Shown piece by piece: positions 1,376-9,329 of a stretch of 64,000 nucleotides of DNA; the first letter of the stretch is position 1, and each line of letters opens with the position of its first letter. The notes beneath the pieces are model-generated. The model searched no databases and was not told where the DNA came from. It saw only the letters and a program-made list of their open reading frames with translations. The position numbers and the translations under genes were made by a program. Where the stretch lies: positions 1 through 64,000 of the IMG/VR virus record IMGVR_UViG_3300028591_000014; one strand, written 5' to 3'. This DNA is from a virus (Duplodnaviria; Caudoviricetes).

Positions 1376-2358
1376 TCGCGCTCTCCGTGTACAACTCGCA
1401 TATTGCGAAGCAACACGATAATATAAAACTAGTGCTCATACTGCCGCGAGGCAAGAGAGTAAGTGTCAAGCCGCAGCGAGTCTGCTGCATGCGTTTTTTA
1501 ACGTCGCCGCTAAGACAAATGAGCACACATGTAAATCTATTCGCAGGCAGCGTGCGCCATAAGTCACGTATTCATGAACGGGGTATTGTGGAATATCTTT
1601 AGCCCGTTTCAATCAAATTTCACAGTTCATGTACTATTCAACGTAAAGTACCCTGTGAGTTTGACCGCTTGCAGGGGAAAAGATTTACGAGCAAATTGGC
1701 AGAATTCTGGGTACGCCCAGAGTTCAGGCTAAAAGAGGTCAGGTCAACACAAGGCTATTTGTGTGTACCTCTTGATGCCTGCTGCCTGGTTCACTGACTA
1801 CAGTGTGAGGGAAGGATGCGTGATCCCAAAATCAATTGAGTTATTCAGTTTCGCACAACTGTAACAACGTTGAGATAAACACACGCTAGACTTGAACAGT
1901 GATAGTCCACTATGATAGTTGAATCATTAGCCAAGTGATAACTCACCTAGGTGAGATTGGTCAGCTGTATACTCATTTATGCAGCGGGGAGCAGGTGACT
2001 CTATTACTCGACCTGTATGCAAATCCCTTTAGAGCAATAACCCTATCCCTATGAAAACTCCCACGGGAGTTTTCATATTGTTATTAGTATGTTGCGAAGC
2101 TAATAGCAAGACATCGAACTAAACTAGTAAGTTACAAGATGTTGGGAAATAGGAGAGGGTGAGAATGAGCTCATCTGAATCCCATACTGAGTACATCAAC
2201 CCAAGTGGAGGATGGAAAGCGCAACAGTATGTTAATTTAAAAGGGGCGGTGTCTGTGTATTCGAAAGAATCGTGATCAGTGGATTAAACTGACATACAGG
2301 CCGCCCCTATTTTTATTGACATGCACCAAAACGGAAATCAATTCTAAAACAAAATAAA

Positions 2359-2559
2359 ATGGCTAACAAGAGAAGATTTAGAAGGGATGCTGTCGCTAGT
2401 AGCGATGGTGTTCACATCCGTATAGCTCACGATAGGAGGGCTGGAACAACAGGTCGGACTACAAAGCGTATATTCGTAAAATGTGGTTCGATAAAAGTGC
2501 AAGTTACGGAGGTACAAGCAAAAATGTTGGCTCCGTGCCAACTTATATTCGCCTTATAA
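2359..2559 (+). CDS. Small basic hypothetical protein
   Basis: 66-aa ORF after the GAAATCAATTCTAAAACAAA leader, which recurs at ~3593. Confidence 0.6.
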   Translation: MANKRRFRRDAVASSDGVHIRIAHDRRAGTTGRTTKRIFVKCGSIKVQVTEVQAKMLAPCQLIFAL

Positions 2560-2698
2560 CCATATCTTTGCATAACAACATCGTCTAATACGCTGTGAAG
2601 CGGATAAGGATCTTTCTGAAAAGCTATAATTTGATTTACCTCACTTTGTTGTGAAACACGGTGAGGTTTTATTGAATATTCACCAATAATCAATATAT

Positions 2699-2977
2699 AT
2701 GAGACAAGCAATAATAATCGTACCTTCTGTAAAAGTTAAAGGAAACGAGATTCTAAAAATTAAAAGTGAAATCGTCGAATTCGTTGGAACAAGAATGATT
2801 GAAAAATCTGAACCAGATGCTCCAATAATATTGTTAAACAACGAGCTGGACGAGCAAGACATGAAACGTCTTGCAGATATGTTTTCTACTGATAATGTAG
2901 GAAACGAGATAGTCCTCATCTTCCTTGACATAGAAGATGATAGCGTGAATGAATCATACATACACGCAGGCATCTAA
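2699..2977 (+). CDS. Hypothetical protein
   Basis: 92-aa ORF with the repeated leader TGAATAT...AATAATCAATATATATG. Confidence 0.65.
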   Translation: MRQAIIIVPSVKVKGNEILKIKSEIVEFVGTRMIEKSEPDAPIILLNNELDEQDMKRLADMFSTDNVGNEIVLIFLDIEDDSVNESYIHAGI

Positions 2978-3835
2978 ACATAACCTTGTTGTGCTTTTAT
3001 AACACAACAAGGTTTTTGTTGAATATCCACTAATAATCAATATATATATGAGACAATTCAACAACTCCCTCCATAAGGCCATAATAGCAGGGATCACTGT
3101 CGTATATATGTTGTGCCTATTGGCATGACATACGACAAATTCGCTACATTTGTAGCAAATCGTACATATGTACGAGAAGTGACCAAATGGCCTGGTCACA
3201 AAAGCGTGAAGAACATTCCTGTAGAATATCACTAATTCAAAAATATATGGACGAAATGATTAATTATGCAGGAGCAGATGGATGGGCATCTATGCTTCGA
3301 CACGAATGGCAATTGCCACAATTCCCATTTATACGTAATCAGAAATTGGGTAAAACCGACTGATATTTTAACGCCTAGCTTGGGCGTAATAATACAAGCA
3401 CCCCAACGGTATCATTCTGCAACCTCTACGTGGTGATACTATAAGTACTTATAAAAGCTATAAGGAAACCAATGCAGAGAATAAGCGTGTGGAGCACAAA
3501 ATCAGCCAATTGTAAACCTCCATATCAGCACCACACGAAAGCTCACACTCCGGTGAGTCGGCCTGTTGACCCGTAGGCAGGCATTTTGAAAAGAAATCAA
3601 TTCTAAAACAAAGCATATGAGTAACAAAGAGTATTTTCAAGCTATAATCCTGCTAGTAGGGTTATGGTTAGTTGTCGCAGTAATTCTATTATTGTATGAA
3701 ACTGCGTAAACTTATTGTGATTGCAGTAGTCTTTATATGGCTGCTTATGTTCTTTACCTATTGTAGGTCTTCTCACATGGCTCATCGAGCCATAAATCAT
3801 CGCCCAGATTCAATCATATCAACAATCAAACAACA

Positions 3836-7930: not shown

Positions 7931-8186
7931 AGTAAGACACTGTTATGTTGAAGACTAAAATAAGGCTTTCTGAGACGTTTTTAGAGCTTAAGTGGATCAG
8001 CTACCCACTAGAGTAAAGAAAACGCGTCAGAGAGCCTGTAAATAGCCTTAAATCGAATGTTTTGACTGATCATCACTACATTCACTACTGGATACCTATA
8101 GTCGTATATTTATTCGATGAAATGTCAAAGGTATCCATCTCTCATTGAAATCTTAGCGGTCTGAGTTAATCTGTTCGGACGGCGGT

Positions 8187-9026
8187 TGATATACGAGCCG
8201 CATTATAATTGGGTGAATTCAAGGAAGACTAAACATAATAAAGGCTCAAAGCCAACATTGTGCATGTTAACCCTGAGCCAAGCATAGAGTACACTCTATG
8301 AAGGTGCAACGACTACTGGAGGAGTATAGTCTCCTTAATTACCAGCTTGAGCGCCCAACATCTCATTTTGAGATGAAGAGATAGTCTCATCTTCACAGAA
8401 ATGTGAAGTGTAGGAAGAAATTAATTTAAGATATTGTTTAGTCTCTAAATCAGACATTGTAGATTTCATAAAGTTTATTGGGGTAGAAACAAACTGTACA
8501 TTTCCTACAACATATCCTTTTGAAGAATCTATTCTGTCTAATGATGCACGACACCATAATTGTTCACAATTTCCTTTCTTATTCCAAGTAGGAAGATACA
8601 GTTTTAAACCTGTGTATGGACAAATACCGTTTTGTTGCTCCCAAATCTGTTTGAGATCTTTAAGAGTGAGATTAAATTCTTTAAAACGCTTTTTGGCGTT
8701 TCTAAAAGAATATCTAAAAGGTGTCCACTCATCTTTATGATTCTGACAATAATTCTTAATATTTTGTTGTGCTTTTAATTGTGCTTCTGTAGGGATGTCT
8801 TTATATAAGTTACACCTATATGTAGCAGAACAAGCTCTACAACAAAAATTCTTTCTACCTAATTTAATGTTCCGATTATATTCGGAAAGAGGCTTTTGAG
8901 CTTCTTTACCACAATTATCGCAAATAAACGTTACCAAACGTCTATTCTGCATATACTTCTTTTGTTCTTCCATACATATATAACGTGGAGGCAGAAGGAA
9001 TGGTTGCGTTAAACTAGAAGATTTTG
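8187..9026 (+). mobile_element. Group I intron (840 nt) in the tmRNA T-loop
   Basis: P1 GCGGT/GCCGC with U.G at the 5' splice site; P/Q/R/S-like elements AATTCAAGGAA, AACCCTGAGCCAAG, GTGCAACGACTA, AAGAGATAGTCT; terminal G at 9026. Confidence 0.9.
8335..8973 (-). CDS. Intron-encoded His-Me finger (HNH-like) homing endonuclease, antisense to the intron
   Basis: Zn ribbon CDNCGK...FCCRAC plus CPYTG...SLDRIDSSKGYVVGNVQFV...INFMK; likely start at Met31 of the listed ORF. Confidence 0.8.
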   Translation of the reverse strand: MEEQKKYMQNRRLVTFICDNCGKEAQKPLSEYNRNIKLGRKNFCCRACSATYRCNLYKDIPTEAQLKAQQNIKNYCQNHKDEWTPFRYSFRNAKKRFKEFNLTLKDLKQIWEQQNGICPYTGLKLYLPTWNKKGNCEQLWCRASLDRIDSSKGYVVGNVQFVSTPINFMKSTMSDLETKQYLKLISSYTSHFCEDETISSSQNEMLGAQAGN

Positions 9027-9131
9027 TCGATTCCGCCCAGGTCCACTTTGACAGATACCGCAATCTGACAATTCTGCGATGGTAAACAAACGGCTATGTT
9101 CACCACGTACGCCCTCATAAGAGGGCATTTT

Positions 9132-9269
9132 GGGCCTGACTGGATTAGACGGGCAGAGGAAGTAAAGGCATTAACGCTTTGATAATAATAACTGGCAATA
9201 TTAACATTGCAGACTATACGGGCCTCAAGGAGGCAGCGTAAAGTCCGTGCAGGCTACGAAAGTGCCTAA
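9132..9269 (+). ncRNA. ssrA: Permuted tmRNA, coding piece; tag (A)GNINIADYTGLKEAA
   Basis: 5' GGGCCTGACTGGATTAGACGGG pairs with CAGGTCC including G3.U70; ATAACT-GGC resume context; tag frame 9194-9241 ends AA-TAA. Confidence 0.9.
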
Positions 9270-9329
9270 GAGTGTAGAACAATGGATCTCCTTGCGAGTG
9301 CTGGTTCGACGCCAGCCTACACTCCACCA
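9270..9329 (+). ncRNA. Miniature tRNA-like RNA ending CCACCA
   Basis: GAGTGTAG/CTACACTC stem, T-arm GCTGG-TTCGACG-CCAGC, no D-stem, only a 3-bp middle stem. Confidence 0.7.

Follow-up and report, generated by a model that had tools for sequence, protein, structure and literature searches.

Can a phage gene for transfer-messenger RNA (tmRNA) that is both permuted and interrupted within its tRNA-like domain still give a mature RNA? This question is raised by a locus at positions 8150 to 9269 of a 64,000-nucleotide stretch of viral DNA, here called the window, which comprises the first 64 kb of the virus record IMGVR_UViG_3300028591_000014; the record is complete, at 102,956 bp, and bears direct terminal repeats. 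The DNA polymerase protein encoded in the window is 75% identical to those of the crAss-like phages cr272_1 and cr273_1 (Suoliviridae), and the placement of the phage is taken from this protein, a megablast search of the phage collection with 24 kb of the window having given no match. A preliminary description of the locus proposed a permuted tmRNA whose tRNA-like domain needs the removal of a group I intron from the T loop. On the evidence of sequence and of comparison with homologues, the locus of this Suoliviridae-like crAss phage very likely is a gene for a circularly permuted (two-piece) tmRNA, whose acceptor piece is split after the first base of the T loop by a mobile group I intron bearing an antisense gene for an HNH-like homing endonuclease.

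The permuted gene and its tRNA-like domain

The order of the gene is permuted, with the 3′ half of the tRNA-like domain (8170-9045) preceding the 5′ half (9132-9157) and helix 2 joining both (Table 1). The two halves form an acceptor stem of 7 bp, GGGCCTG with CAGGTCC, which contains the alanine identity pair G3.U70 and is followed by the discriminator A9045; CCA is not encoded at this end, where the gene reads ACTT. The T arm GGCGG-TTCGATT-CCGCC, with its canonical 7-nt loop, arises only once 8187-9026 is removed. The preliminary description had listed this acceptor stem, a helix 2a formed by TCTGTTCG and CGGGCAGA, the helix-2 strand, the T arm, CAGGTCC-A at 9038-9045, GGGCCTG at 9132, the context ATAACT-GGC and the tag, and a sequence check found all of them in place; the gap of about 85 nt that it gave between the halves measures 86 nt. 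In the coding piece, an A/U-rich single strand precedes the resume codon GGC at 9194, in the context AATAACT-GGC. The first five codons of the tag form an internal covarying hairpin (GCAAT/ATTGC in the DNA, GCAAU/AUUGC in the RNA), a second hairpin encloses the stop codon, and a post-stop hairpin follows at 9251-9267.

On the raw window, ARAGORN calls a tRNA-Met and a tRNA-Arg only and no tmRNA. After in-silico splicing, a scripted deletion of 8187-9026, it calls a permuted tmRNA with the expected tag, GNINIADYTGLKEAA, and with the same domain limits as predicted. The 3′ half is then read as TCTGTTCG-GAC-GGCGG-TTCGATT-CCGCC-CAGGTCC-A and the 5′ half as GGGCCTG...CGGGCAGA. The appearance of this call only after the deletion, together with a match of 83.6 bits to the Rfam group I intron model RF00028, bears out the earlier proposal that the tRNA-like domain depends on the removal of a T-loop intron. 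None of 300 shuffles of the spliced region yields a tmRNA call in ARAGORN. In RNAcofold, the pair of predicted mature pieces folds into the full set of helices, P2a to P2d included, at -70.5 kcal/mol, compared with -53.8 +/- 4.2 kcal/mol for shuffles.

The gene has relatives in which the T loop is unbroken. In a blastn search against the phage collection, the tag region matches genes annotated as "transfer-messenger RNA, SsrA" in cr272_1 and cr273_1, and ARAGORN finds both to be permuted, with the tag GNINVVDYTGLQEAA. In IMG/VR, two pattern scans turned up 13 loci that have the conserved tag end. The search for intron-less homologues in Crassvirales that the preliminary description had suggested yielded ten permuted genes, namely those of cr272_1 and cr273_1 in RefSeq and eight IMG/VR loci. 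Three of them pass the gathering cut-off of 47 bits of the Rfam model tmRNA_permuted (RF04321), with 58.2 bits in L010, 51.7 in L009 and 49.4 in L003. The closest relative of the window gene, L013, is 76% identical over the spliced gene and has no intron, its T arm GGGGG-TTCGACT-CCCCC being unbroken.

Covariation was scored on an alignment (A1) of the ten intron-less genes with a structure of 55 pairs. In A1, 89.2% of the paired cells hold a pair, compared with 80.3% in shuffles, and the covariation score is 0.301, compared with 0.138 in shuffles and 0.03-0.115 when the partners are slid by 1-3 columns; none of 500 shuffles reaches the observed value in either measure. Pairing amounts to 100% in the T arm, where two pairs covary, and to 98.6% in the acceptor stem, where three pairs covary and G3.U70 is invariant. 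In an alignment of 14 genes that includes the spliced intron-bearing ones, P2a shows 14 extra pair types over 6 bp. Reading of an alignment gives six variants of P2b (AGGC/GUCU, AGAC/GUCU, AUAC/GUAU, GACA/UGUC, GUCG/UGAC and CACA/UGUG); for P2c, most genes have CGCU/AGCG and cr273_1 has GCGUA/UACGC, and P2d is GAU/AUC. RNAalifold recovers P2a, P2c and P2d. Both the acceptor stem and helix 2, as paired in the preliminary description, thus covary among the homologues, and the tag frame that it read is conserved, with synonymous changes. Across 15 alleles the tag ends in [D/N][Y/H]TGL[K/Q][E/Q]AA before the stop codon. L014 and L015 show four synonymous changes over the DYTG codons (GAT TAC ACT GGT in one form, GAC TAT ACG GGC in the other), and such changes with the frame kept indicate selection on the peptide. 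In the intron-bearing alleles the exons retain every helix, G3.U70 and the tag frame.

A pseudoknot between CCUAAG in the post-stop loop and CUUAG in the acceptor piece was tried and rejected, because cr273_1 alters the acceptor-piece strand while its loop is unchanged, and because this strand covaries with CGCU upstream of the resume codon. Among the candidate partners read from the alignment, none covaries with the post-stop hairpin's loop, which is conserved.

Table 1. Features of the tmRNA locus, with positions in the window
Feature	Position	Strand	Description and basis
Acceptor piece, 5′ exon	8150-8186	+	ARAGORN domain limits; covariation of P2a, P2b and P2c; RNAcofold; 5′ end of the RNA predicted
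P2d strand	8150-8152	+	ATC
P2c strand	8155-8158	+	AGCG
P2b strand	8159-8162	+	GTCT
P2a strand	8170-8177	+	TCTGTTCG
T stem, 5′ strand	8181-8185	+	GGCGG
First T-loop base	8186	+	T; the intron's -1 U
Group I intron	8187-9026	+	840 nt; core P3-P9 to 8408; 618-nt peripheral insert after P9; terminal G 9026
Homing-endonuclease-like gene	8335-8973	-	212 aa; ATG 8973-8971; stop 8337-8335; 3′ end overlaps intron P8-P9
Acceptor piece, 3′ exon	9027-9045	+	begins with T-loop bases 2-7, TCGATT
T stem, 3′ strand	9033-9037	+	CCGCC
Acceptor stem, 3′ strand	9038-9044	+	CAGGTCC
Discriminator	9045	+	A
Intervening sequence between the pieces	9046-9131	+	86 nt; removal by tRNA-end processing expected
Coding piece	9132-9269	+	ARAGORN; alignments and RNAalifold; pair counts; RNAcofold
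Acceptor stem, 5′ strand	9132-9138	+	GGGCCTG
D-loop analogue	9139-9149	+	
P2a strand	9150-9157	+	CGGGCAGA
P2b strand	9166-9169	+	AGGC
P2c strand	9175-9178	+	CGCT
P2d strand	9181-9183	+	GAT
Tag reading frame	9194-9241	+	GNINIADYTGLKEAA; stop 9239-9241
tRNA-like minihelix	9270-9329	+	60 nt, directly 3′ of the coding piece; acceptor-like stem of 8 bp, GAGTGTAG/CTACACTC; perfect T arm, GCTGG-TTCGACG-CCAGC; encoded CACCA end

The minihelix that follows the coding piece is found at the same position in most homologues, where its stem covaries (GAGTGAG/CTCACTC in most), and in L003 a genuine tRNA-Gln(UUG) stands in its place. Judging from its sequence and position, the minihelix is probably a signal for ribonuclease P (RNase P) that sets the 3′ end of the coding piece. 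As a partner for GGGCCTG, its T arm at 9300-9316 was tried and discarded, because the acceptor strand of the minihelix, CTACACTC, pairs with GAGTGTAG instead. Among the homologues, the sequence that intervenes between the two pieces is anywhere from 20 to 200 nt long. Directly 5′ of the coding piece, at 9111-9131, it ends in a terminator-like hairpin, GCCCTC-ATAA-GAGGGC followed by ATTTT, which is kept in L013; the two pieces could be made as separate transcripts, or the hairpin could aid cleavage by RNase P. In L005 (4445-4625) and L029 the intervening sequence holds an open reading frame (ORF) of about 60 codons, and the two ORFs are mutually unrelated. Upstream of the acceptor piece, a hairpin region at 8040-8100 (AAATCGAATGTTTTGAC...ACATTCAC) is conserved in L003, L005, L014, L018, L028 and L029 and may act as promoter or operator or in processing. 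On the + strand between 7620 and 9377, the only ORFs of at least 40 aa that lie wholly inside are two short ones within the region of the antisense gene.

The intron, its splice junction and its spread

The intron matches RF00028 over the full model (positions 1-253) at 8153-8408, its score standing against a cut-off of 50 bits. P1 is formed by exon 8182-8186 and the guide 8197-8201 (GCGGU/GCCGC), with U8186 opposite G8197. The joining of GGCGGT to TCGATT is the sole join that combines a T loop of 7 nt with an intron that follows a U and ends in G. This junction is given as exact because it follows the rule of a U at -1 and a terminal G, restores the 7-nt T loop and has a P1 that covaries in the homologues. 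ARAGORN accepts junctions shifted by up to 3 nt and therefore does not fix the junction. Two other splice sites were set aside. The P1 of the Rfam alignment (8157-8181) would put the 5′ splice site near 8162, from where the exons cannot be joined in a sensible way; moreover, in L005 the T stem is where the match of the model begins, and the helix GCGGU/GCCGC shows covariation with the exon. If G8408, just after P9, is taken as the 3′ splice site, the T loop is not restored, whereas 9026 restores it. The sequence at the 3′ splice site, AGATTTTG followed by TCGA, is conserved in five alleles.

These five alleles, in the window, L005, L018 (in the genome of L011), L028 and L029, carry the same intron after T-loop base 1, with lengths of 823-840 nt. 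When three of the alleles are compared pairwise, the introns are 88-91% identical and the spliced tmRNA genes 54-58%, and an intron identity so far above that of the host gene fits a recent lateral spread. The first 25 nt or so of the intron vary by allele, each matching the local T stem. The pairs formed by exon and guide are GCGGU/GCCGC in the window, GAGGGU/GCUCUC in L005, UGGGU/GCCCA in L018 and GGGU/GCCC in both L028 and L029. The fit of each guide to its own T stem argues, at the level of sequence, for mobility and for a continuing selection on P1 pairing and so on splicing.

The endonuclease gene lies on the strand opposite to the tmRNA and the intron, and it is intact. The 212-aa product matches PHROG 3322 (endonuclease, 2.3e-23) and PHROG 3118 (HNH endonuclease, 4.9e-16); no Pfam family scores over the cut-off and there is no significant match in the PDB. 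The opposite-strand ORF is intact in all five alleles, with 209-212 aa and 89-92% identity.

Another tmRNA gene of the family, in L004, carries a different intron of 741 nt, 57% identical, which is inserted after loop base 7 and has the P1 CGAAU/GUUCG. Just downstream of that gene (L004 5200-6110, minus strand of the locus) is a tRNA-Leu(UAA)-like gene whose anticodon loop is broken by another group I intron (63.3 bits), which follows U34 and precedes A35 and has an endonuclease-like ORF on the sense strand. Sequences related to the intron of the window also occur at other sites. A stretch of 85 nt (8276-8360) shares 88% identity with LR756501/LR756503, a 735-kb record of an uncultured phage, and identities of 69-78% are seen between the intron and stretches elsewhere in cr6_1, cr55_1, cr1_1, cr4_1 and cr118_1. 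From these matches the intron family is widespread among gut phages. The same intron or endonuclease was not found in bacterial (host) tmRNA genes, and a protein scan gave no relatives. A 20-mer from the intron core occurs in four small contigs of metagenome-assembled genomes (MAGs), of which only one, L033, has a group I intron; this intron adjoins two tRNA genes, as in cr128_1, and L033 may be phage DNA. Elsewhere in the phage genome to which the window belongs, outside the window and on the minus strand, there are two sub-threshold group I intron matches, at 70973-71203 (42.4 bits) and 71515-71773 (25.3 bits), and a related phage, G003, has seven such matches.

A homologous intron also interrupts what is apparently an unannotated tmRNA gene of the one-piece, standard order in cr128_1 (L002, NC_055885.1, Steigviridae; 2034-3350). 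The 5′ half of this gene, GGGGCAT, is at L002:2034, its tag reads GNTYRAAA before the stop codon, and its T loop carries, after loop base 2, an intron of 869 nt (L002 2464-3332). The nucleotide identity to the intron of the window is 68.5% over 680 nt, and the antisense ORF is 58% identical at the amino acid level. ARAGORN finds nothing in cr128_1 even after in-silico splicing, and Rfam gives no tmRNA match, so that the one-piece reading comes from manual pairing alone.

Processing, function and rival explanations

Transcription of the region on the + strand would give a precursor in which the intron folds with GCGGU/GCCGC as P1, self-splices with guanosine and ligates the two exons of the acceptor piece. 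The T arm and the acceptor stem would form only after this step. RNase P, 3′ trimming with CCA addition and alanyl-tRNA synthetase (AlaRS) act on the acceptor/T-arm unit, and since this unit is absent until the intron is removed, splicing would have to come first. RNase P would then cut before G9132, with loss of the 86-nt intervening sequence, and the 3′ end after A9045 would be trimmed and given CCA; because the acceptor 3′ end is encoded as A-C-T-T, the CCA would be completed after trimming. An acceptor piece of about 59 nt and a coding piece of about 138 nt would be held together by the acceptor stem and the composite helix 2 (P2a-d). The host AlaRS would charge this RNA and the host SmpB would deliver it, host SmpB being needed because the complete phage genome of 102,956 bp encodes no SmpB gene. 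Ribosomes that have stalled would restart translation at GGC and append the peptide GNINIADYTGLKEAA.

The phage also appears to use an altered genetic code. When TAG is read as sense, the coverage by long ORFs rises from 0.46-0.70 to 0.80-1.0 over 30-103 kb, and with TAG read as Q, the minus strand of the window between 30144 and 60185 holds ORFs of 5309 aa (63 TAG), 2127 aa (26 TAG) and 1269 aa (12 TAG). From the rise in coverage and these long ORFs, TAG is very probably recoded in the late genes. ARAGORN finds no CTA suppressor tRNA in the whole genome, its only tRNA calls being the tRNA-Met and tRNA-Arg. A role for the tmRNA at TAG codons is speculation.

Several observations weigh against a gene that is spliced into a working tmRNA. 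The Rfam alignment places P1 on another hairpin (8157-8181), and the P1 proposed here rests on the comparison of homologues. P10 is weak, with 2-3 bp. Splicing could also be impeded by the 618 nt that lie between P9 and the 3′ splice site and are transcribed antisense to a gene. In a permissive Rfam scan the unspliced window reaches only 15.4 bits on tmRNA_permuted (9005-9241), far from the cut-off of 47. The alignment, a covariation scan and RNAalifold revealed none of the pseudoknots typical of tmRNA. Typical proteolysis tags end in LAA; the tag here ends in EAA, and its fate may therefore differ from that of a standard degradation tag. The weak P10, the large insert with its antisense transcription and the failure of both ARAGORN and the Rfam tmRNA models on the native sequence would suit a tmRNA in decay, which the invasion of the intron and endonuclease gene has inactivated and which is no longer spliced into a working RNA. 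Such decay is nevertheless improbable, given an intron core that matches the full Rfam model with 83.6 bits, a guide that is altered to fit different T stems in five alleles, exons that keep all their helices, G3.U70 and the tag frame in the intron-bearing alleles, and the persistence of the same arrangement in five divergent phages.

The features of the RNA itself bear on whether it rescues ribosomes. Tags of Bacteroidota are about 9 aa long and end in ALAA, and the phage tag is longer, with 15 aa that end in LKEAA or LQEAA. Since no pseudoknot was found, the predicted mature RNA would consist of about 59 plus about 138 nt, or about 200 nt in total, and a phage that lacks SmpB must use that of its host. 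These features favour a tmRNA mimic, which would be a decoy or competitor of the host tmRNA-SmpB and not a tagging rescuer, or else a tag peptide that is not a degradation signal; there is also a precedent in the tmRNA of phage DS6A, which lacks a coding sequence (CDS-less) and inhibits the host tmRNA (PMC11915505). Either of the two is rather unlikely here, since the tag frame, the resume codon and the stop codon are strictly kept through synonymous changes, and this conservation argues that the ORF is translated.

It is also conceivable that the intron is a regulatory gate, in which the rate of splicing, set by guanosine supply, folding or antisense transcription of the endonuclease gene, times the ribosome rescue by the phage and could coincide with the switch to TAG-containing late genes. 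The need of RNase P, CCA addition and AlaRS for a unit that is present only after splicing speaks for such a gate, and so does the apparent recoding of TAG, with 63 in-frame TAGs in the 5309-aa ORF and the raised long-ORF coverage. However, 10 of the 16 related tmRNA genes have no intron, the nearest relative (L013) among them, so that the intron is dispensable and apparently recently spread, and a regulatory role is unlikely on this ground. It is established, moreover, that tmRNA targets ribosomes with an empty mRNA channel and not in-frame stop codons as such, and no publication was found in the literature that links tmRNA to recoded phages. Taken with these points, the gate is highly improbable. 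The reading preferred here is that of a two-piece tmRNA matured by splicing, in which the intron is probably a selfish passenger kept harmless by its own removal, and not a regulator.

Comparison with known tmRNA genes

The tmRNA database of 2025 (PMC11915505) holds 97,179 sequences in standard, permuted, intron and CDS-less forms. Its bacterial intron form comprises 883 sequences with a group I intron in the T-psi-C loop, at positions 2, 3, 7 and 8. Position-2 introns occur only in Anaerolineae and in one member of the Myxococcota, the endonucleases are of the LAGLIDADG type, and no intron is longer than 700 bp. The gene of the window shares with this form the T-loop intron, the -1 U paired to G in P1 and the terminal G, and its endonuclease gene after P9 occupies one of the two sites reported in that paper. 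It differs in being permuted, in its HNH-like antisense endonuclease, in its 840 nt and in its carrier, a phage of Bacteroidota. The intron site of the window is related to the position numbers of the database by inference from passages of the text of that paper. Supplementary Table 2 of the same paper lists 48 permuted tmRNA instances in Bacteroidota genomes, with no position-2 introns there. Some of these 48 may be crAss-like phage contigs binned into MAGs, the tmRNA of the phylum itself being of one piece. The catalogue lists no class that is both permuted and intron-bearing, and because of its permuted order the gene of the window fits neither the permuted nor the intron form alone.

Among the permuted genes, the closest in kind are those of cr273_1 (NC_055904.1, 35492-35861) and cr272_1 (NC_055903.1), which belong to the same gene family and show the same gene order. 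They share with the window a homologous tag, G3.U70, helix 2 and the downstream tRNA genes and sigma factor. Their T loop is uninterrupted, whereas that of the window is split by the 840-nt intron with its antisense endonuclease gene, and for this reason standard annotation misses the gene of the window. Two-piece tmRNAs are also known in phages, mostly marine, for example Melnitz (2022; PMC9004378). Like the two-piece tmRNAs of Alphaproteobacteria, some Betaproteobacteria and Cyanobacteria (RF04321), those of the marine phages are permuted and have their pieces joined by the acceptor stem and helix 2, as in the window. The RNA of the window differs from all of these in that no pseudoknots were detected and in its predicted length of only about 200 nt. 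Since the sister genes in crAss-like phages are annotated in RefSeq and two-piece tmRNAs of marine phages are known, a two-piece gene in a phage is not in itself new. The earlier claim that the combination is undescribed agrees with the catalogue, from which the permuted gene with an intron is absent. Literature searches on tmRNA with crAss-like phages and on permuted tmRNA with phages returned no description of the combined form.

The resume codon GGC and the tRNA-like domain of the window resemble those of the one-piece gene in cr128_1, and this resemblance in sequence hints at a separate origin of the permutation. A broader proposal can be made only tentatively, with somewhat less than an even chance of being right: two-piece tmRNA may have a fourth, independent lineage in the crAss-like phages, derived within phages from a one-piece gene of the Bacteroidota type and reduced to an RNA of about 200 nt without pseudoknots. 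In that lineage the T loop would be a homing site, hit by at least three distinct insertions of introns (after loop bases 1, 2 and 7), and the result would be a fourth gene form, permuted plus intron.

Because ARAGORN and Rfam miss this form and the current tmRNA catalogue has no class for it, phage tmRNAs of such a kind are under-counted. A natural tmRNA of about 200 nt in which no pseudoknots were found offers a compact system for asking which parts trans-translation needs. The intron is a clear case of a mobile element that spreads among divergent phage RNA genes, with a guide that adapts to each target. The carrier belongs to an abundant group of gut phages that recodes TAG, and the role of a ribosome-rescue RNA supplied by the phage is a concrete question there. 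Set beside the known systems, the gene of the window newly combines two tmRNA gene forms that are each known, and its family is annotated but unstudied.

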